Assembly: GCA_965645245.1 (NCBI GenBank)
Contig: OZ287069.1
Location: 2,852,001-2,916,000, forward strand
DNA: 64,000 nt
Direction of reading: 5' to 3'
From: Massalongia carnosa
Taxonomy: Eukaryota
In this document: positions 1 to 64,000 of the stretch, in pieces
Position numbering within the stretch: the first letter of the stretch is position 1
Layout of the letters: each line of letters starts with the position of its first letter
Position numbers and translations under genes: made by a program
Notes under the pieces: generated by a model
Told to the model about the DNA's origin: nothing
Database searches by the model: none
What the model saw: the letters and a program-made list of their open reading frames with translations, nothing else

Positions 1-167
1 GTCAGGCCCGGCACCCTGCCGGCGCTCAGGATTCGCAGTAGCGTGAGACGTAGTAGGTCCTATGGGTAGGTACGCTAAGAAGTAGTCATAGCATACCACG
101 AGTTTAATAATCATTATACGTCAGATAAACGCTATGAACTCGAAATCAATCTTGTTATTTTAATTTG

Positions 168-1420
168 CTAAGGAGTGTAATCTCTATCGTTAACGTTGTG
201 ATTACGCCTGGCAAGGTCTAGAAGCATTTTACAACAACGTTCCACTGCGAGCTCCTTACGAGCTGTTTCCAAATGAAGCCTCAACCGATCGAAGGTCAAT
301 GGAAACCTTATGTTTCCCCCGTTTGTAGCATCGAGAGGGTAGAAGTCGCTCAACTTGAGGTCAAGTTCCGTAGTTGCATTATCCGGAACAAAAAACCATT
401 AAAACCCCGAGTTAGCGTACATTAGCTGAATAAAAGAAAAGAAGTACAGCTCACTAATCGAGTTCCCTGCTGCTTCGCCTCTCCATTCACTGTATCTCTC
501 TTCCATATCTCGAGAAACACGCACTTGTTACTAACCTAAACCAAATTGTTTATCTGGAGCGGGCCAAAGCTGTCGTTCGGATCTTTAAGAGTGACCATAG
601 AAGTATCAAGATCTTTAGGATTAGGGAACCCAAGGTCCTCGAACTCATCATCTTCCAGTTTGCTGGTAGGGGAATAGTATCGTGGATTCTCCTCCACTTT
701 GATTAGGATCACAGTCCTCATATCCCTGTTTCCTTCTATCCATAACTTGACGTCGTCAATAAGTTCTTCTTATGTTTCTGTGAAACAGATTTCAACCACA
801 GCGGTGTATAAGACTTTATGATCTTGTCCTTTTTACTTGAACAGCACGTCTGGTTCCTTCGTACTACCCTCGTAAGCCCCTGTAAAGGCTTCTACTCTTT
901 GAATCCCTACAACATCGATTTGCCTCGCTATTTCAGACCGAAAGTCCTGTATAGCAATAGTATCGCTTCTAATGAAGGGAGACGCAAGAATCTCGCGAAT
1001 AGGTGAGGGCATCCATTGGATAATCCCAGTGCAACTTCGGGAGCTGAAGGAGATAGATGGCCAACTATAACAAGTCATGTTAGCTATCATAATTTGCATA
1101 TTAGGGTCTAAAGAGTATACCGAAGATCAAGTCCATCATAACCAATGGCTTCATCCAGCTTTCGAAAATAATTTGCTGGCATTTGTACTCGTTCTACACT
1201 ATGCAAAGGTATGAACTTCTGTTTTCTGCGTTCCTTGTTGGCGAGGACACTCTCTTTAAGTCTTGCCTTGTATATTGTAAGGTCTGAAGGCGTAAACATC
1301 TCGAGTGGGCTTTCAGGAGGGGTTGCTGGATGATTCGACCCGATAGGAGGACTGGTAGTTGGTAAGACATTGTGCTTCAGAAGAGGTGCACGCTGGACGT
1401 CTTCTGGTGGCGTTATCTTT
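168..1420 (-). pseudogene. Decayed fungal PD-(D/E)XK (Uma2-like) nuclease-fold gene
   Basis: ORF fragments 1108-1299, 833-1099, 536-721 and 168-353 join across stops and frameshifts into '[11 protein letters not shown]...[43 protein letters not shown]'. This resembles the KEPD...VVE.G.SE...L..D.KLW pattern of fungal restriction-endonuclease-fold proteins. Boundaries approximate. Confidence 0.5.
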
Positions 1421-6880: not shown

Positions 6881-7697
6881 CTCGACTATTCAGACAGGTC
6901 TAGATCAAATTAGCATATTGGATTCTCGCCAGGAAATGGGAAGTCATACGCTGACCACTACACCGTAGAACCGAATGATAAGAACTAAGAGTAATAATCA
7001 TCAATATATGTAGTATTGGGTATACTTTTAGCATTGATTACTAATAAATATTCGCGGTATATGATCATTTATGTGCAAGGTCATCCGAAGAGTGGGACAC
7101 ACTGGACAACGAGACTAACTTCATTTCGCTTAACGTTTGAAGCCTAAATTTCACTCGCTTTACATAATAAAAAGAAATAAATAAAAAGAAAAGAAAAGAA
7201 AATTTATAAATTATAAATTTACGTTTTTGTTTTGTCGTAATATCGCGATTCGAAACTCATTTGATATTTGTCGTCCGCCGTACGCTGGAATCAGAATCGG
7301 AATGTTTTCCAACCTCGCGATCCCGTATTTAAGCGCGGTCAAGTCTTTTAATTTTCTTGACTTTTTTTAAAGATGTTATTCTTTTTATTAGTTATTAATT
7401 ATTTAAATTTTATAAGAATAAAATGGTTCTCCAAGTAAGTGTTCATGATGATGATGATGATGATGATGTATTTATACTCCGATATGACACCGGCCGTAGG
7501 CCGGCCCATGCGGGCAAAGCTATCTAAGTTATGTTACATGGAAAACCTTTCACAGGTGTAAAAACCATGTCCCTTGATACCCGTCCGATGTGACTACGGG
7601 TCGACGTCGGGCGGGAGACGCAGTGCAAAAGCCGTGTGGGAACTGTAATGCCTTGTGAAAAGAGAAGAAAGAAAGAAAGGTTCAACTATTGTTGATT

Positions 7698-10600
7698 TTA
7701 CAATAATGTTGATGCTAGTGAGAATTGATTCAATAAGCCTGTTTTCATTAGCCAAGCAGTTAGTATCTTCAGAGTTTTTGATGATTTGGTCAGCTGCTGA
7801 TAGTCGCTCGTGCCGGCGGCGCGAAACATCTGTTCTCTATTGTCAATAAGTCTGCAGAACATGATTACATGTTCTGGAGTTTGTCTGTGCCAGCCACATG
7901 AGCAGGCCGGTGAGGTGACGGAGGGCACCCGTCGCTTGTAGAGGAAGTCAGCTAACCCGATTTTGCCAGTGCGGATTTGAGTTGTTAGAGCGCTTTCTGC
8001 CTTTTTTAGCTGCGTGTGTATTTTCAGCCGTTTTTTGCTCAGTGGGACTGATTGTGCTATGGAGGGTTCGATGACGCGATTTTGATATGCGCACCACGAG
8101 TCGTTCCAGACCTTCATTTGTCGTGCTTTGATTGTTTGCATCTGCTTGTGTCGGGCCGTTGCCGCAACGGTAGCTTCGCGGTGCCACGCCGGGTAGACTT
8201 CGAACCATGGTGGGTGTGCCTTTGGTGGTTGAACTATTTTTGAGTCGATCAGTAGGCTTTTGGCCCAGATGTGTTTCAGCTCTCCCGGGGTGGGCTTTTG
8301 AAGTCGTTTGCGACCTGCCTTGCCTCGAAGTTTGTCAGCTATTTTGTTGCATGCGGAGGAGATGATCTTCAATTGGCCTCCGGCTCGGAGCCGGTGCCTT
8401 GCCTGTGCTTGTAGCATGTCGAGATGCGTGTCTATGGGCGCTATGAATGTCTCTGCTTCTAGTACTGAGATGGGAGTGGCTTTAAAGGCACCGGCTATGG
8501 TGCGAAGGCAATTGTTTTGCATGACGGAGAGCTTGCTCGTTGACGTTTTTGACTTTTTGACTTCTTTGGGCATGTGCCATACGGTTGACCCATATGTCAT
8601 GGCCGGACGCACCACGGCACTGTAAACCTGCCTTGCCTTGGCGAAGGTGGCACCCCAGGTTGATGTGGAAATTTTTGTCAATGCCATGGATTGTTTGACC
8701 ATTTTCTCTTGCGTTTTGCGAACGTGCGGTCCCCATTTCAATTTGGTGTCGATTTGTAGGCCCAATACTCTGATGTCCGTTTTAGGTTCAATTTCGGTGC
8801 TAGCAATATTGATGGATGCAGTCATGTTGAATCTTTTGGGATTTCTGGACAAGTGTATGAGTTCGTACTTCGTCGGAGCGAATACGGACCCGTGCCGGGA
8901 AGCCCACGTCTCACATTGTCTGTGTATTGCCTCTAGAGTTTTGCAGTTTTCCTCGGTGCTTTTTCCATATGCCAAAATGTTTGCGTCGTCTACGAATCCT
9001 ATGGCATTTGTGTTTTTGCCTGGTCGATCACATATTTCCAATAGATCTGCATTGTAAAATAGGTAAAGAATGGATGACAGGGGAGAGCCCTGTGGGATAC
9101 CCGTTCTTACCGCAAACCGCCCAGTGACTTTTCGATTTATTGCTAAAGTGGTGCTTCGATCGCTCAGAAAGCTGTTTAGCCAGTCGGTGATCCATTTTGG
9201 AATTTTTCTTTTCCGTAGGTTGTGCGTTAGTCGTTGATGTGATACCGTATCGAACGCGCCGGCGACGTCCATGCTTAGCAGTGTGGCTACTTTGTCTTTT
9301 CCCTGTCCCCAAATCGTGTGAACCTGTTCAGTTAGCAGTTCCAGTGCTGACTCTGTGGATCTGCCCTTCCTTGCTCCCATCTGTGTATCGGGTAGGAGCC
9401 GGTGTTTTTCCGCCAGATAGGTTATTTTCGATCCAATGATGGATTCCATAACTTTACTGAGCGTGTTGAGCAGTGCAATTGGTCGGTAGGCTTTCGGCGT
9501 GGTATAGTCTCCTTTGCCTATTTTTTTCAGCGCTATTGTGTTTGCCATTTTGAAGGCCCGCGGGTGGTACGAGTGTGTGACGCACGCCTGAAACAGAGGT
9601 GTTAGTAGTTCGACAAGTATTTCGCTGCATGCTTTGAGTATTCTGTTAGATATGCCGTCTGGGCCCGGTGCCTTATCGGACTTGAGCCGACTCAGGGCCG
9701 TCGATACTTCTGACTTGGTGATGATTATTGGGCAGTGCGGCGATGTAGGATAGAAGGATCCTTCTATGTCGCTTAGGTCGGCCGGTGGTGGTGCGGGAAA
9801 GAAGACACCTTTCAGCATTTCGGCTTTTTGGTCAAACGTGTCTGCTACTTGGTCATTGAATTTTAGCATCGGCATTTTGGATACTTCTCTAGATTGATGA
9901 CTTTTGTCTTTGGCCCATTTCGCTAGCCGCCATAGTCCCTGAGGCGTTTCGGTGGCCTTATTGATTTCTTGACGAAAGTTTGTTCTCTTTGCCTTTTGAA
10001 TGATTTTCTGTTTTTTATCATTGGATTTCATATAGTTAGACCAGTCCGTTAGGTCTAACGTGCTGGACCATATGCGGCGTAGTTTCCGTGTGGCTTTGGT
10101 GGCAATGCTGCATTCTTCTGTCCAGAATGGCTTAGCATATTCGCTAGATTTTGCCCATGGAACTGCTTCGTTGATGACATTTTGTAGAAATTTTTGAATC
10201 GATTCCGTGTACGCATCAATCTCGGCAGTGGTACGGGGAGACTCCGGTATAGGGGCGTGTCGTTCGGCCTCCCTTAATTTTTCCAGGTTTAGAAGTTTCC
10301 ATGCTCTGCGTTTGATTTTCGGTTGCGGCTCGCTTCCGAGTAGGATGCGGGTTGATATCGGCACGTGATCGGACGATTGATTCAATTCTGGTCTGGACAT
10401 GCAGTGTTCGAGTCTTTCGACTAGGTATTCTGACATGAAAACCAAATCTATCGTGCTAGACGTGTTTCTTGCTTCCCATGTTACGGTGCCTTTCGGCAGT
10501 GTCAACGAAAGATTATGATCATCGATTATTTCCAGTAATTGATCAGCAGCAGCGTGTTGTGTGGGTCTTGAGGGACCATTCCAAAAGGGATGATGCAGGT

Positions 10601-11051
10601 TGAAATCTCCAAGTAGTATGTGATGCGCATCGGCGGTAAGCATGCTCCGAGCCGCCGGTAAGGTCGTGTGACTGTCAGTGGATGAATAGGAAGCGGGAGA
10701 GGGGTTATACACATTATGGACGTGAATTGTTTCCATAACGCCTTCGGTGTAGGTCTTTATTTTCAAAGTGCACATGTCGGCCGAGGTGAATTCCACCTCC
10801 CAGCTGTCAGTGTCTATTAGGTCGTTGACATAAAAGCACACTCTGGTGTCACCTCCTGGGCGGTATAGGAGGTGAAAGCCGCTTTGATGAGAACTAAGCG
10901 ATGTGGGGGCGGATGGATTGCGCCACGGTTCCTGTATTGCAATAATATCATAGTCCTGGGTGTTTGTGTCTGCTAAGAGGGGTATCATAGTACTCACTCT
11001 GTCATTTCTGACATTATACTGCAATATAGAGAGGGATTTTGTGTCCCTCAT
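7698..11051 (-). CDS. LINE ORF2: APE endonuclease + reverse transcriptase + C-terminal cysteine-rich motif; no RNase H motif seen
   Basis: ILQYNV, IAIQEP, GDFNLHH, TIDLVF, SDH (APE); KAPGPDGI, YRPIALL, GIPQGSPLS, FVDD (RT); CSCG..QTPEHVIMFC. Intact 1117 aa. Confidence 0.95.
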   Translation of the reverse strand: MRDTKSLSILQYNVRNDRVSTMIPLLADTNTQDYDIIAIQEPWRNPSAPTSLSSHQSGFHLLYRPGGDTRVCFYVNDLIDTDSWEVEFTSADMCTLKIKTYTEGVMETIHVHNVYNPSPASYSSTDSHTTLPAARSMLTADAHHILLGDFNLHHPFWNGPSRPTQHAAADQLLEIIDDHNLSLTLPKGTVTWEARNTSSTIDLVFMSEYLVERLEHCMSRPELNQSSDHVPISTRILLGSEPQPKIKRRAWKLLNLEKLREAERHAPIPESPRTTAEIDAYTESIQKFLQNVINEAVPWAKSSEYAKPFWTEECSIATKATRKLRRIWSSTLDLTDWSNYMKSNDKKQKIIQKAKRTNFRQEINKATETPQGLWRLAKWAKDKSHQSREVSKMPMLKFNDQVADTFDQKAEMLKGVFFPAPPPADLSDIEGSFYPTSPHCPIIITKSEVSTALSRLKSDKAPGPDGISNRILKACSEILVELLTPLFQACVTHSYHPRAFKMANTIALKKIGKGDYTTPKAYRPIALLNTLSKVMESIIGSKITYLAEKHRLLPDTQMGARKGRSTESALELLTEQVHTIWGQGKDKVATLLSMDVAGAFDTVSHQRLTHNLRKRKIPKWITDWLNSFLSDRSTTLAINRKVTGRFAVRTGIPQGSPLSSILYLFYNADLLEICDRPGKNTNAIGFVDDANILAYGKSTEENCKTLEAIHRQCETWASRHGSVFAPTKYELIHLSRNPKRFNMTASINIASTEIEPKTDIRVLGLQIDTKLKWGPHVRKTQEKMVKQSMALTKISTSTWGATFAKARQVYSAVVRPAMTYGSTVWHMPKEVKKSKTSTSKLSVMQNNCLRTIAGAFKATPISVLEAETFIAPIDTHLDMLQAQARHRLRAGGQLKIISSACNKIADKLRGKAGRKRLQKPTPGELKHIWAKSLLIDSKIVQPPKAHPPWFEVYPAWHREATVAATARHKQMQTIKARQMKVWNDSWCAYQNRVIEPSIAQSVPLSKKRLKIHTQLKKAESALTTQIRTGKIGLADFLYKRRVPSVTSPACSCGWHRQTPEHVIMFCRLIDNREQMFRAAGTSDYQQLTKSSKTLKILTAWLMKTGLLNQFSLASTLL

Positions 11052-12535
11052 AGGATTTCCATCGTTTCGGCCGCTGTGTTCGATGTGACCTGAGTTCCTG
11101 CCGTTAATGCTACGGAATCTGCACGAGGCCTACCCAGCACTGGTTTTGCTAAGGCCTTTACCATATTTTCAGGATTCATGATGCCTATATTAGCCCAGGT
11201 AGGTGCGTCGTCTCCCCGATGAGGGCCCGGGGGTGTGCCGGATGAGGGCGTAGCGTTGTGTATTTTTCTTTTCTTGCCGTTTACTATCTTCCACGTTGAC
11301 GGAATTTCGTCCGTTTGTGTGACTGTGGGTGTCGACTCTCGTTGAAGTTGAAATTGAAATGAGGGCGGCTGTGATTCAATTGCATAGAGGGGGGCGCGGT
11401 TTTGCATTGCTATTTCAGTTTTTCGCTTTTCAGCTAATCTGACTTTGCATGCTGTGGACCATGCCTCGTGTCCCTTCTCTCCGCATACGGCGCAACGGCG
11501 GTATTGTCCCGTTGTCTCCAGATTGCATTCTTTGCTTTGATGTCCACCGGCGCAGTGACCACAGGCGGCGGGATTGCGGCATGCTCTACCGATGTGTCCG
11601 TATTTTTGGCAGTTGAAGCATTGAGTCATGGTGCAACCACGTGTGAAGCGCTCGCAGTCCTTTATTTCGTAGCTTTCCATTAGGCCCTCGGTGATGAGCC
11701 GGTTAGCCATCTCGGCGGTGGCGACCTCTATATGAAGCGTCGAGTACGCTTTTTTCTCTCTAATGGCCTTGATTGACCAGGCTACTTTGACGATCTTCAG
11801 GTTAGGGTGCAGGCGTGCGTTAGCGGCCTGAAGGTAGGTGATGGCTGTTGATTGATTGGCCACTTTGATGTTTTCCACCCTGATTCCATTCGCTCTTACG
11901 GTGAAGGTGCGGGTGTGCACCGCAGCTGAGGCGGCCACCATGCGGGTCTAATCGGTCTTCTCCTGCAGGGTCTTCTTTGCTTCCAATGACTCTGCGTGAA
12001 TCCTGATGTCGCCGTTTAACAAACGCGACACTCCCCTTATTCCTTCAGCTCCATTTTGTAGTGTTTCTACTAACTCCTTGGTTGGCATTAGCTTCATTTT
12101 TTCCTTGTCCGCATCCTCCGTGATGTGAACGGTGATTTCCCGGGCACGTCGCGCTTCTCTTGGTGTGGGTGCTTTGTCTTTGCGGGCCTGTTGAGGCTTG
12201 ACGTTTTGGTTCTTTGGGGGTGCGGGCTCATCTCGGCCTTGCCTTGTGGCAGCAGCGGCATAGCTGCGAGGAGTGGTCTCATTGCGCTCTATGCGTGTCA
12301 ATGATTGTTGGATTGCCTGTAATGTGTCACCTATGTTGTTGGGAGTTTCTGCAACTTTGTCATCGACTAGATTTTGCGCTTGCAAAATTTCCGCAGAGTT
12401 TCTCAGCAACTGCAACGCCTCCGGGTCACCAACGGTGCCCACTCGATCAAGATACTCCTTGATCTTTACGTGTAAAAATTCCCTCCTTTCGCTGTGCGCT
12501 CTCGAGAGCGCGTTTGTTTGTTCGAGTGTAGTCAT
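11048..12535 (-). pseudogene. LINE ORF1 (gag-like, CCHC zinc knuckles) with one in-frame TAG
   Basis: ORFs 11948-12535 and 11048-11941 are in the same frame, separated by GAT-TAG-ACC-CGC-ATG; knuckles CFNCQKYGHIGRAC, CGHCAGGHQSKEC and CAVCGEKGHEAWSTAC. Confidence 0.9.
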
Positions 12536-12701
12536 TTTCGCGACAAGTTTATTTCGGCGGATGTTATATTGATGCCTAAAGATACCATACGAGAATAGTA
12601 TATGGATACAGCCAAACTTCGTAAGTGTTCATTAAAGCTGCAAATCAACTGAATTCTTTCTAGCCTCTAAAAGCCTCTCAGGGCCTCCATTCCGCATTGT
12701 T

Positions 12702-14895: not shown

Positions 14896-15970
14896 ACGAA
14901 ATGAGTTTTAGTGCGGGAGCAATGCGGCAATACAATAGTTAATAGATGGTCACGTGTTATTTAGAACTCGAGAATACTATATCTATACTAAATATATGCT
15001 TCTCCCCTCCAGTCCAGTCGACCCAGAGAAGACCCCAAAAATCAATCCCCACCGATCGCACCAATTTCCCCAAAAAGGGGTACTCCGTCCTCAGCACTAT
15101 GCCTGTGCTCTGTAGTTACCACTTACCTCGCCGGCTGCGCGGGGAATCCGAACCCATGGGGCTGGGAAAACAAACCTCCCTGTACAGAATACCTACCTAT
15201 CTGGGCTGGGCTGGTCTGGATTTGGGTTTGGGGTTTGGGTTGGGTAGGATGTAGGTATTGCGTTGGATTTTATTTTGGATGATGTTATTGGGGGGGGGGG
15301 GGGGGTTGGGAAGGTGTAGGGTTCGTTGCTTGGTAGGCAGGTCTCAAGCATGAATGCGTGTAGGTATGCGCCTGTGTATGATAGGAGATAAGGGAGAGGA
15401 TTGCCTAGTTGGAAAAGGGGTTTTAGGATCCCCCAAAGAATGGGGTAAAAGGAGGGAGGTTACTTGGTGGAAAGAAAATGTCAGAGGAGTCGATCTCGCC
15501 GGTATGCAAGGTACCAAGGAAGAAAACAACGGTTTTCTTGTTCCTTCTAAGTGGTTCTTATTAGATAATACAGCGGAACACCTGAAAGACAAGATTGCCT
15601 CCCATTTTCGGTTCTACCATATTCTGCGCATACCCAACCTGGCCTGCTGGTATCCATCTCCGCCCATCTGTCTCATCCATGGCGCTGGGAAAACTCCAAC
15701 TCATCGTGACTGCCTCGATAGGATCCAAAAGGAAATCTTCAGCCGTAGTCTACAGTTGGCTAATCAGAGTGCCGGGACCTGCTTCCAATCAATGGTACCG
15801 ACAAGTAGTCTTGCAAAATGGTTTCACTGTTCGCGAATCTGACCCCGAAGCTCCGTTAGCTATCATTGGTCGGTTTGACGACGGTTTCTGAGGAAAAAGG
15901 AACGTTGTGATACCAGGAAGAGCCGGGGATAGACCCCCTATTCGAAGTGTCAACCAAAAACCCATCTCCC

Positions 15971-60463: not shown

Positions 60464-61317
60464 ATTGGGGGAATATAAAAATAAGGAACTACCTATATTT
60501 ACCAAGAGAATACACGCAATTACTTCAGTGTCAATATTGTAAAAGCAGACAGCCTTTAGTGGGAAAAGGTAAGCTTTATAGGTGGGATCCCAAGGGCTCC
60601 TCGTCTCCCAATCGCCAGTGGCAAGGCTGAAACCCTCGGACGTCAACGTCAGACAAGGCTTCAGGTCAACTAAAGTTACACAACTGGCCACCTGGCTTCC
60701 GCTCCCGCGATTTATTTATGGTTAGTAAAGCCTATGTTATTGGTGACTTCACAAGCCAATTGGAATCATGTACGAACATAAGCGAACATTCGCATTTCGA
60801 CATAACGCTATACTTGGAAACTCTGTGCTTGCGTGGCTTTCGACAAAGCGGAGTCTGAATAACGTTGGAAAGGGCCTTTAGAGCGCCAAAACGCTACACC
60901 TAGATCTACAGCGTGCTCTGGATGTAAGTGGTTAGTTAGCTGGAGATTCTATTGATGGTTTGATAGAGGGACGGCTTGGCTTGGACTACTCGTACAGACA
61001 TAAGCCTATCAAATGGCAGGTTTTTACAATCAGTTCAACTAGCTCTACGACGGTTGATACTTTTTAACGTATCACCAAATCATGAAGAAGATTGCCATTC
61101 AGCCACCACTTCTCCAACTCTCTCACGATGAGCTTGTAGTCAGGCGCGTACCTTTTGGCTTGAAAAATGCTCTTCTTTGCCTCGTCAGTCCTCTCAAGGC
61201 CTCGACACGCGATAGCCATTCGAAAATGCACATTGCCTTTTCAGCATTCATGATCAGTGTATCAGCACCTTCAAGAATACTTTAGTGCACGTTCCTATGT
61301 TCAATATCCGATGCCAC

Positions 61318-61390
61318 GGCTGGCAACGAGGACCACCTGTACGCGGTGCCGGCTACGAACCTTCTGCTTGCCAGAAGAGCCAAGTGTCTC
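61318..61390 (+). ncRNA. HDV-like (delta-like) self-cleaving ribozyme, predicted
   Basis: P1 GGCUGGC/GCCGGCU with G1-U wobble; P3 ACC/GGU; L3 UGUACGC; P1.1 GU/AC; P4 CUUCUG/CAGAAG; J4/2 GCCAA (C61380 = C75 equivalent); P2 GAGGACC/GUGUCUC (imperfect). Confidence 0.8.
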
Positions 61391-62600
61391 TCTCCCCTTC
61401 GGTGACGGGTGGGTGTCGGAGGTGAATCGGGGGGTGGGTGAGCACTCCGTGCGGTTTCACCAAAGCACACACATCGCGACGAAAGTTGAGTATCGAAAGA
61501 ACGAACCACAAACGCCATAGTTCTCGAGGTGTTTCCTGAAGGACACAGTCATAGGAGGAGTAGCTCCTAATCTGGGGGTCGAGGAAGAGTCGAACTGCCA
61601 CAAACGCGAAAGGGGTGACGCCCGACAGTCCTCGTACCCGTACGAGGGCCGACACGTTTACGATTCGACTACGAAGCGATTTACCGGGTGGAAAACAGAG
61701 TTTTCGGTCACACCAAAGAGCACGAGAGTATTGCTCCCATCGAAGTAAGAGCTTGGGAAGGCGGACGAGTCGGCACAGCCTCGAGGGGTCCTCGGAGGGA
61801 GCACATGGGAAGGCGGGCGAGTCGGTACAGCCTGAAAAGGAATAATGAGGCATAAGGGACTCCCGTTGGGGCTCGTTTGTGACGGCTATGTCACCGACGA
61901 CCTCACCGCGGCCGGTGTACGTATATGACTTCAGGAATAGTCCTTGCTACTCTACAAGCTTGGTGCCCTAGTTCTTTTCGAAGAACGGTCAAACTACGAC
62001 ACGGTATTGAGGCCTGGTGGAAGGTGCACTTCTCTACCTTATTATTCTCGGAAAGGCCTCTGACCCATGGTTTTCGAGGTGGATGCAACGAGGTCATCTG
62101 ACCCATGACTTATAACGAAGGCGTATGCACATTCGGTCGACTTGAAGGGATAGAGGTGACGACATCGACACGTACGAGCAGCGATAGGCATGTCGAGGGC
62201 GATAGACACACAAAAACAGTCAAAAGTGGGAGCAGGAATACATCTGGATTTGATTTCGATCTACTGGATGACCCGGCTCGGAGGGGATACGGGGGTCTTC
62301 CGCTGAGTCCCCGCTGGATAACGATTCGAGATCAAAACGACCAAGGCTCAAAAAAGTCCCTACCCTGACCATAGTGCGCGATTCATCGTGCCATTTCTTT
62401 TTCTTTCTGGTCATGCAGTCCGCATAGACGTCCGAATCCGTTCCGGCCCCAAGGAGTCGGTGATGGAGTGTTGAAACACAGGGTTTTTGTCACCTCGTAA
62501 GGTTTTTTCACCCCTGTATATAGCCCCATAGATGTGCCCGCATGGGCCGTCCTTCGGACGGTGCCACATCGGAGAATGAATTATCATCATCATCATCATC
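61318..62600 (+). mobile_element. Non-autonomous non-LTR retroelement (SINE/SIDE-like) with 5' HDV-like ribozyme and Tad1-LINE-like 3' tail
   Basis: 14-bp TSD ATATCCGATGCCAC at 61304-61317 and 62601-62614; (CAT)n tail 62583-62600; the 3' ~200 nt resembles the LINE 3' UTR at 7470-7680; no RT or gag coding inside. Confidence 0.88.
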
Positions 62601-64000
62601 ATATCCGATGCCACACGTTCGCCCCAGAAGTGAGCCATCTCCCAATCCTCGAGCTTTATGTACGCCTGGACGATGTTCCAGTTGAGCTGCGAGCCAAGTT
62701 TGTGTCGAAGGAGATCTCCTCGTTGGCCGGCAAGCTTGCCCTCAAGCGGCGTGGTGGCGAAGTAGCCGTCGAGCAGTACTGCGTATGTTCGCCCGTCGAT
62801 AATGGTATGCATAGCTTCATATGCTTCATGGTACTTCTGGATGCTTAGCATAAAGCCTCCAGCCTTGAAGGCAGCGTTGCCTTCTAGCTTCAGTTTTCCG
62901 GCATTCTCAAGAAAATCTGTGGGAGTTGGATTCGGGATTTTCATGGCTTTCTTCAGTTGCTTTTCTGCCGATTTCAGTTTGCAACCTTCGATCGAGACAT
63001 TGCGAATATGCTTCAGTATGGCAAATGGCATCAACAGCGATTCTTGCAATAGTTTAGGGGGAACCGTAGGCTTCGTTGCATACGAGTCCTTGATAATCAA
63101 TTGAAGAAATATGCCCCGAAAAAAGCCGAATTCCTGATAGTCAAAATAATATAATAATTTGCACAGCTGAGGAAGATCGTCTACACATGTGATGTAGGTT
63201 TAAAGTGTTTTTGATTTGACGTCGACTATAAGATCTAGGCGAACGGAGAGGTGGTATTACTTGAAAGATGTTGCTTTTGCGCCCTGGCCTATTATGGGAA
63301 ATTTCCCTGACAAGGGACTTGAAATCTCTCCAAGCCGTGGTAATCTAGATGAACTTGTTCTTGTGAAAAACGCCCTTGGCTTCATCGTGAATCTGCCGAT
63401 TTGTACGGAGGATAGCCACAACGAGATCATAGCAAGAAAAGCCAAACTCAACGTACCGTTTAGTGCGCCTGGTGGAAAGCAAGTTGCTGTAGACTTGCAG
63501 ACGAAGCTCCAATGGTAGACCGAGGAACCTGAACCCATTCAGCAACTGGTGGTGTTCCTTGAAGCTATCAAACTTTGGAGATCCAGGATCTGGCGATATG
63601 ACAGGATTATCAATTACTACAGAAGGGGAGGAGCGGGAGAGAACTTTCTTCCAACGTAAGGTTACGGGATCTAATACATATCTAGGGCATTTTTTCAACC
63701 TCGTGTTGAGTCCAGCAAAAAAAAAAATTGGGAGTTATATCTAAGTTGCCCATGTTCTTATGTATGAGGGTTCACAAAAACATTGATAGCAAGGACGAAT
63801 TAGGCATAGGGGAAGCTTTATTAGCATTTGTACCTCACAAATCTCTTGAAACGTGCCGAGTTTTACCACATCAATCATACTTTATGTTCACTGGGAAAGA
63901 ACCCAATTTGTAAAATACGAGTTGAATTTCATTGCAACGAGCATTAGTTATGAAAGCTATCGCCGAGGTGCTATCGCAAGATGCGTGGTGTGCGCCATGT

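Follow-up and report, generated by a model that had tools for sequence, protein, structure and literature searches.

A candidate ribozyme-headed, LINE-dependent non-coding retroelement that interrupts an open reading frame in Massalongia carnosa

An insert that splits an open reading frame

The 64,000-nucleotide stretch of Massalongia carnosa DNA analysed here (hereafter the window: positions 2,852,001 to 2,916,000 of the forward strand of contig OZ287069.1, assembly GCA_965645245.1) contains, close to its right end, a 1283-bp insert on the plus strand at 61318-62600, lying between two perfect copies of a 14-bp sequence. This insert appears to be built of three modules, all read on the plus strand: a ribozyme of about 75 nt at its exact 5' end (61318-61392), which resembles the hepatitis delta virus (HDV) ribozyme; a body of about 1.1 kb without coding capacity (61393-62475); and a tail seemingly derived from the 3' untranslated region (UTR) of a long interspersed nuclear element (LINE; 62476-62582), which is closed by a (CAT)n microsatellite (62583-62600). 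We consider it quite probable that the insert is a ribozyme-processed, non-autonomous and non-coding retroelement of the type that lacks long terminal repeats (non-LTR), which would depend on a LINE for its mobilization. A candidate autonomous partner, a non-LTR retrotransposon of 5174 bp, lies in the same window on the minus strand at 7447-12620, as delimited by reading of the sequence, Pfam matches and a duplication search.

An exact pattern search places the two copies of the 14-mer (ATATCCGATGCCAC) on the plus strand at 61304-61317 and 62601-62614, immediately to either side of the insert. It has two exact matches in the whole window as against 0.02 expected by chance, and two or more matches were seen in none of 100 shuffles; the perfect target-site duplication claimed in an earlier interpretation made without database searches (the sequence-only reading) is therefore borne out. 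When the flanks are joined by script over one copy of the duplication, they yield one minus-strand open reading frame (ORF) of 206 amino acids, which ends in WGERVASDIEHRNVH before its stop (VASDIEHRNVH). Because the flanks without the insert give this single ORF, the insert can be said to split it. The upstream part of the host ORF occupies 62615-63100 on the minus strand and, once the insert is removed, the frame resumes from 61317 downward to a stop seven codons past the junction, which probably reflects an intron. The pieces flanking the insert have no Pfam match at E<=1, and a sequence search of the PDB returned weak matches to tetratricopeptide repeat (TPR) proteins (STI1, E=0.056; CTPR390, E=0.55). 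Thus, of the earlier claim of an interrupted TPR gene, the rejoining of the frame stands, and the host ORF can be called TPR-like only weakly.

The ribozyme head and the 5' boundary

The first 75 nucleotides of the insert can be folded into the helices of an HDV-like ribozyme. P1 joins nt 1-7 to nt 31-37 with all seven pairs formed, including G1.U37 and U4.G34; P2 joins nt 11-16 to nt 69-75 by six pairs with U72 bulged out; P3 joins nt 18-20 to nt 28-30 by 3 bp; P1.1 comprises the 2 bp G22-C39 and U23-A38; and P4 joins nt 44-49 to nt 55-60 by 6 bp. An extra C17 stands between P2 and P3, and the joining segment J4/2 reads AGCCAAGU, with C63/C64 as the candidate catalytic residue. The cleavage site is predicted to lie directly 5' of G61318.

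To obtain related heads, we took a 23-nt core pattern of the element to fish in contigs of public metagenomes, which gave at least 120 loci; all the counts given below for these L-numbered loci rest on the matches listed. The contigs are probably those of lichen-associated fungi, and the listed loci fall into many head subfamilies with a common conserved core and variable helices. A MAFFT alignment of 34 heads (A1) was inconsistent with the structure at the 5' end and in P2, and alignments A2 and A3 were used instead. From 18 metagenome heads, with the window sequence excluded, we built a covariance model (R1) whose structure holds the nested helices P2, P3 and P4 (P1 is not part of it). In the window, R1 finds a single match at E<=10, which spans 61318-61392 with 85.8 bits (E ~2e-20), and the HDV model of Rfam, RF00094, can be weakly aligned in the same register. 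This bears out the sequence-only reading, which had recognized an HDV-like fold starting at the first nucleotide of the insert.

Running R1 over 80 sources gave 83 matches that form the 61 distinct rows of alignment A3, to which P1 and P1.1 were added as pseudoknots. Standard pairs fill 96.4% of its 1402 cells, against a mean of 84.5% in shuffled and 29-54% in slid controls; 14 of the 24 pairs change on both sides (176 cells), and none of 500 shuffles reaches any of the five measures used. The P1 cells are paired in 95.8%, with position 5/33 alternating between A-U (39 rows), G-C (13) and G-U (4), and with G.U as the first pair in 52 of 59 rows. P2, both strands of which lie outside the fishing pattern, changes on both sides at all six pairs with 86-95% of its cells paired. 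P4, likewise outside the pattern, does so at five of six pairs, with 97.7% of cells paired and a loop of variable length. P3 and P1.1 are pairable in 98.9% and 100%, respectively, and are nearly invariant since their bases are fixed by the 23-nt pattern. J4/2, which again lies outside the pattern, reads A-G-C-Y (A in 59, G in 57, C in 53 and Y in 58 of the 61 rows), whereas the column of the extra nucleotide between P2 and P3 (column 42) holds C in 53 rows, T in four, A in three and a gap in one. A conserved internal loop, with GAAC facing AGAG, flanks P4. The compensatory changes across these families point to selection on the fold itself.

These observations bear on an alternative in which the head is a relic, or serves in some other capacity (as an internal promoter, in RNA stability or in translation), with the 5' end of the element being set by transcription initiation at G1. 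There is a precedent for a dual role: in Trypanosoma cruzi, the first 77 nt of L1Tc/NARTc are described as acting as internal promoter and as ribozyme alike (PMC3383444). Moreover, the window copy lies antisense to the host ORF and its cleavage is a prediction. However, all the helices of the window copy are intact and its J4/2 agrees with the family consensus, the compensatory changes indicate selection on the fold, and representatives of what is probably the same fungal ribozyme class are described as cleaving in vitro (PMC5640933; see below). We therefore hold a relic or a different role to be improbable.

The 5' ends of the related copies were then compared with respect to G1. Among the matches listed there are 121 pattern matches, and the 106 of them with an intact P1 belong to 59 unique insertion sites. 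Across the 59 sites each of the positions -15 to -1 has a pairwise identity of 0.24-0.34, and the sequences become alike from G1 on; position -1 holds C at 19 sites, T at 15, A at 15 and G at 10. In the fetched DNA, a target-site duplication of 10-17 bp is present at 16 of the 59 sites, and 11 of the 16 abut G1 exactly; one of the 16 (L054) is a 10-bp match without a repeat tail, which may be a chance occurrence. The duplication-flanked elements listed are 498-2774 bp in length and have tails that are A-rich or composed of (CA)n, (AAAC)n, (TTA)n or (AAATC)n. A few of the listed copies have lost about 10 nt at the 5' end (L002, L018) or have point changes in P1.

Copy number was assessed from the assembled contigs of four public runs (X1, X2, X5 and X6). 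Run labels include "lichen metagenome", which, together with the nuclear genes of eukaryotic type and the long, compact ORFs of the window, suggests a fungal origin. The depth of the element relative to its flank is 1227-2148 vs 434 in X1, 85-204 vs 26.6 in X2 and 12.8-19 vs ~4 in X5; with a depth of about 3-5 times that of the flank in three runs, the element is present in about 3-5 copies. Two further contigs in X1 and two in X5 have other flanks that break exactly at 61318. The dispersed copies with a common starting G that the sequence-only reading had called for are thus at hand: the element is not single-copy, and the 5' ends at the 59 listed sites, where the DNA is random up to -1, are tied to G1.

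The run contigs also contain other head families of the same organisms which, aligned at window 61334-61383, match the element only over ribozyme nt 17-49 or 17-66. The differences in their P1 and P2 strands compensate each other (GAGAUC with GAUCUC), so that several families with ribozyme heads coexist in one genome. Further AT-rich copies of the ribozyme were noted in the metagenome loci at L002:1540-1622 (+) and L015:1596-1685 (-), with GC contents of 0.40 and 0.31 and scores of 51.9 and 31.8 bits. They are without the exact core pattern and have many transitions, the L015 copy being on the opposite strand inside the 2774-bp headed element; both look like decayed heads, possibly mutated by repeat-induced point mutation. 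A different arrangement is seen in L067, a contig of 1553 nt, where two heads at 13-35 (-) and 182-204 (+) stand in opposite orientation about 150 nt apart.

The tail, the co-resident LINE and other ribozyme-headed elements

At the other end of the insert, the tail (62476-62582) was compared with the LINE of the window by blastn, by pairwise alignment (A4) and by Smith-Waterman scores against shuffles. By blastn, nt 1211-1283 of the element match the 3' end of the LINE at 7450-7523 (-) with 85.1% identity over 74 nt; a weaker and patchy similarity to the LINE 3' UTR begins from about element nt 1160, and the Smith-Waterman score is reached by 1 of 200 shuffles. The two tails have in common a hairpin, CCGUCC-UUCG-GGACGG in the element vs CCGGCC-UACG-GGCCGG in the LINE, with one compensatory pair. 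Both end in (CAT)n: Tandem Repeats Finder delimits the repeat of the element, (ATC)6 at 62583-62600, as 62583-62602 with period 3 and 6.7 copies, and the LINE closes with a structured tail and (CAT)8. The structured tail with (CAT)n described in the sequence-only reading is thus confirmed as LINE-like; a Tad1 affinity of the LINE, as proposed there, would be tentative. Since the 3' tail and the microsatellite are common to the element and a co-resident LINE, they fit mobilization in trans. In X1 the depth of the tail bin is about 45 times that of the flank, and the tail is therefore abundant in the genome. At the insertion sites of both elements the duplication starts with AT right after (CAT)n (61304-61305 and 62601-62602 for the element; 7445-7446 and 12631-12632 for the LINE), such that the first 2 nt of the target keep the register of the repeat; this arrangement suggests that microhomology between the 3' repeat of the RNA and the nicked target may prime insertion.

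The LINE itself is flanked by a 12-bp duplication, ATGAACACTTAC, at 7435-7446 and 12621-12632. Its ORF2 (7698-11051, 1117 amino acids) is open and encodes an apurinic/apyrimidinic endonuclease (APE) domain and a reverse transcriptase (RT) domain (RVT_1, E=1.2e-29, Pfam), and its ORF1 contains a zf-CCHC domain by Pfam.

None of these coding regions was recognized in the body of the insert (61393-62475). Three ORFs of the element match no Pfam family, a tblastn search with ORF1 and ORF2 of the window LINE against the element has a best E of 0.06, and the longest stop-to-stop frame, of 197 amino acids, is on the opposite strand. Beyond the head, the body has no match in the 120 related metagenome loci listed. 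The GC content of the element as a whole is 0.54 vs 0.48 for the window, and the body includes a direct repeat of 42 nt, the two copies of which (61740-61781 and 61792-61833) are 81% identical at a spacing of 52. As for the features by which short interspersed nuclear elements (SINEs) are recognized, the element has a LINE-shared 3' end, a target-site duplication and dispersed copies; it has no RNA polymerase III (Pol III) head of the tRNA, 7SL or 5S type, with ARAGORN reporting 0 tRNAs in 61000-62900 and Rfam no tRNA, 5S or 7SL match at E<=10. These results agree with three statements of the sequence-only reading, namely that the insert has neither an RT nor a gag ORF, that it lacks a tRNA- or 5S-derived Pol III head and that its body does not align to LINE ORFs.

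It could be argued that the insert is simply a 5'-truncated or decayed LINE copy, or that the fold is a chance match, and that there is no distinct family: the tail is LINE-derived and LINE copies are often truncated. Against this stand the want of similarity to ORF1 or ORF2 (best E 0.06), the coincidence to the nucleotide of the 5' end with G1 of an 85.8-bit fold and the several copies with that same 5' end, and we regard such an explanation as very improbable indeed.

Among the listed metagenome loci, some headed elements have recognizable LINE sequences. L021, a ribozyme-headed element of 2638 bp with a 15-bp duplication and a (TTA)n tail, has an ORF with 34% identity to aa 840-1066 of the window ORF2 (E=2e-35); L012 (1514 bp) keeps the C-terminus of ORF2, and L018 has an ORF1-like match at +1725. 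L012, L015 (2774 bp) and L021 have their first 1083-1119 nt in common at 87-91% identity, as well as their 3' ends, and differ by internal deletions; the shared ~1.1 kb looks like the 5' UTR of a headed LINE with internal deletions. On sequence grounds, then, ribozyme heads are part of LINEs in at least one related family, and the same type of head marks the 5' ends of many short duplication-flanked elements and of internally deleted LINEs in these contigs.

Other loci carry the head on different material. A short family (L001, L049, L053, L058 and L042) has only nt 1-81 (93-95%) in common with the LINE represented by L012, L015 and L021, and has another body and another tail. Three of its members (L042, L058 and L053) have 2-3 tandem copies of a unit of ~50-90 nt at element nt ~160-400, just 3' of the head, and the number of units accounts for the length variation of 498-1194 bp in this family. 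Similarly, the window head is 92% identical to that of L008 over nt 1-71 and 82-86% identical to those of L066, L037 and L071, elements whose bodies and tails ((AAAC)n, (CA)n) are unrelated to those of the window element. Given such similar heads on unrelated bodies and tails, the head behaves as a module.

Downstream of the heads, 118 of the 121 listed stretches have no match to the window LINE proteins within the DNA fetched (which nowhere exceeds 3 kb and for some 40 loci amounts to just about 350 nt), and Pfam finds no RT or endonuclease domain in 14 ORFs from these regions. The L074 ORF at +1132 has no similarity to the first part of the window ORF1 (ORF1a). Two other downstream matches were set aside: a copia-type gag in L069 (4836-5756 (+), Retrotran_gag_2, E=7.9e-16), which lies 1.8 kb past the head and probably belongs to a neighbouring LTR element, and a weak SPRY match in L014, which looks unrelated to the headed element.

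The internally deleted LINEs raise the prospect that the window element, while working by the same mechanism, is not a composite SINE but a short internally deleted element (SIDE), in which the ~1.1-kb 5' UTR of a ribozyme-headed LINE became joined to the 3' UTR of the same LINE with the loss of its ORFs. Deletions of this kind are seen in L012, L015 and L021 (though L012 and L021 keep fragments of ORF2), and the ~1.1-kb 5' UTR of these elements is close in length to the non-tail body of the window element, also ~1.1 kb. A SIDE is collinear at both ends with one LINE; here the 3' end is common with the window LINE, but that copy lacks the head and has an unrelated 5' UTR, with no similarity to the body of the element. 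Moreover, heads are exchanged as modules elsewhere, both between the short family and the L012/L015/L021 LINE and between the window head and those of L008, L066, L037 and L071. We accordingly treat an origin as a SIDE as a tentative though serious possibility.

Proposed cycle and comparison with known systems

Several observations weigh against a ribozyme-processed, LINE-dependent element. With respect to the head, RF00094, a model built on viral HDV sequences, places G1 at 61318 with only 20.2 bits where the gathering score is 50 (E=5), and nowhere in the window does a family of Rfam attain its gathering score. The bulge in P2 made a strict HDV structure descriptor pass over the element, for which reason the covariance model was used; the sole match of the descriptor, at 15232-15300 (+), is a GT-rich low-complexity stretch with a run of 17 G, matched spuriously through G.U pairs. 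In A3, the invariance of P1.1, of the 3' strand of P3 and of most of the 3' strand of P1 is uninformative on the fold because the 23-nt pattern fixes them, and the pairing of P2, P3 and P4 is inflated by the fitting of the alignment to these helices. With respect to the tail, the folding energies of the two tails are unremarkable (z = -0.60 and -1.45), and the case for the tail therefore rests on sequence identity and one compensatory pair. As to the partner, the ORF1 of the window LINE is split by one in-frame TAG (~11948-11950) into parts of 195 and 297 amino acids, R1 finds no ribozyme head on this copy, and its 85-nt 5' UTR shows no relation to the element, with a score that 104 of 200 shuffles equal or exceed. 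The copy may be 5'-truncated, because the ATG of ORF1 is only 85 nt in vs a 5' UTR of ~1.1 kb in the related headed LINE family. Finally, the element is antisense to the host ORF, and sense RNA of the element is therefore not expected from read-through of the host; and no contig joint skipping 61318-62614, as an empty-site allele would give, is found in X1, X2, X5 or X6, although contigs are a weak test of absence.

With these points weighed, the proposal of the sequence-only reading that this is a ribozyme-headed, LINE-dependent element is supported, with read-through, cleavage and trans-mobilization as steps that we infer. The cycle of such an element could proceed as follows. It would first be transcribed within a longer RNA or from an internal promoter. 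The ribozyme would then cut 5' of G61318 to leave a defined 5'-OH, as suggested by the fold and by the in vitro cleavage reported for a class to which it probably belongs. Next, going by the identity of the tails, the ORF2 protein of a LINE would bind the tail and microsatellite in trans and initiate target-primed reverse transcription. Lastly, the cDNA would extend to G1, and integration would generate the 14-bp duplication which, in the sequence of the window, abuts G1.

A ribozyme type like that of the window has probably already been reported in fungi, without a role. Li & Breaker (2017, BMC Genomics 18:785; PMC5640933) describe 230 such ribozymes, which they call "variant HDV ribozymes", from 26 species of fungi. 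These have an extra nucleotide, mostly C, that separates P2 from P3, a loop E in P4 and typically a C-G pair at the cleavage site; constructs from Penicillium chrysogenum and Aspergillus niger cleave in vitro at the base of P1. No biological role is given there: the authors write of "widely variable gene associations", and a count of the word stem "retrotranspos" in the text gives 0 (PMC5640933). In a 2026 preprint, four variant HDV ribozymes of Aspergillus nidulans are confirmed. Compared by description, the window type is like these in its nested double pseudoknot, in the extra C (here C17, 53 of 61 rows) and perhaps in the purine-rich internal loop at the base of P4 (loop E in theirs, GAAC/AGAG here); it may differ in its first P1 pair, which is G.U (52 of 59 rows) as opposed to their typical C-G at the cleavage site. 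Our literature searches, which did not take in Repbase and Dfam, found no paper joining HDV-like ribozymes to fungal retroelements. Hence, of the novelty in fungi surmised in the sequence-only reading, the link to retroelements is unreported in the literature found; the ribozyme class itself was probably published in 2017, and in this respect the claim was overstated.

A broader proposition, the chances of which we judge to be evenly balanced, is that these ~230 fungal variant HDV ribozymes are in general the 5' processing heads of non-LTR retroelements, and that the ~80-nt head is portable and has been repeatedly joined to unrelated non-coding bodies with tails from different LINEs. If so, an orphan but validated class of fungal ribozymes would gain a role in defining the 5' ends of retroelements, and elements that combine a ribozyme head and a LINE tail, known from animals and trypanosomatids, would be extended to fungi. 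It would also constitute a Pol III-independent route to SINE-like elements in fungi, with the 1283-bp element as one of its products. To our knowledge, few SINEs are known in fungi, and the present data point to a set of short, non-coding, LINE-dependent fungal elements that would otherwise escape transposable element annotation and can interrupt genes, as does the window copy. A head common to unrelated bodies further suggests recombination of RNA modules during retrotransposition.

In function, the closest analogues are the trypanosomatid elements NARTc, RIME and SIDER, which are described as LINE-dependent and as having an HDV-like ribozyme in their first ~77 nt that cleaves at +1 and frees the element from co-transcripts (PMC4035085). 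These relatives of L1Tc/ingi are non-autonomous or degenerate, ribozyme-headed and LINE-dependent, much as is proposed for the window element. They differ in the sequence of their ribozyme (Pr77) and in belonging to another kingdom; moreover, NARTc and RIME are simple truncations of their LINEs, whereas the head described here occurs, too, on bodies and tails that have no relation to the headed LINE, and the tails here are structured and end in microsatellites. More widely, a review lists HDV-like ribozymes in R2, L1Tc, Baggins, RTE and metazoan LINEs and SINEs (PMC6765202). In the SIDEs of R2 and the metazoan elements, much as is proposed for the window element, a 5' ribozyme releases a defined 5' end from a co-transcript, the LINE protein binds 3' sequences to carry out target-primed reverse transcription, and both ends are retained in the non-autonomous derivatives (PMC3414825, PMC6765202). 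R2 differs in being specific to ribosomal DNA and in using a restriction-like endonuclease, whereas the window element is dispersed and has an APE-type LINE as its candidate partner. In the stringent LINE/SINE pairs, such as UnaL2/UnaSINE1 of the eel, the SINE copies the 3' stem-loop and terminal short repeat of the LINE; such SINEs have Pol III (tRNA-derived) heads, in contrast to the element here, in which none was found. Set beside these systems, the element is probably a new, and probably fungal, case of a ribozyme-headed, LINE-dependent, non-autonomous retroelement, a design that is already known.

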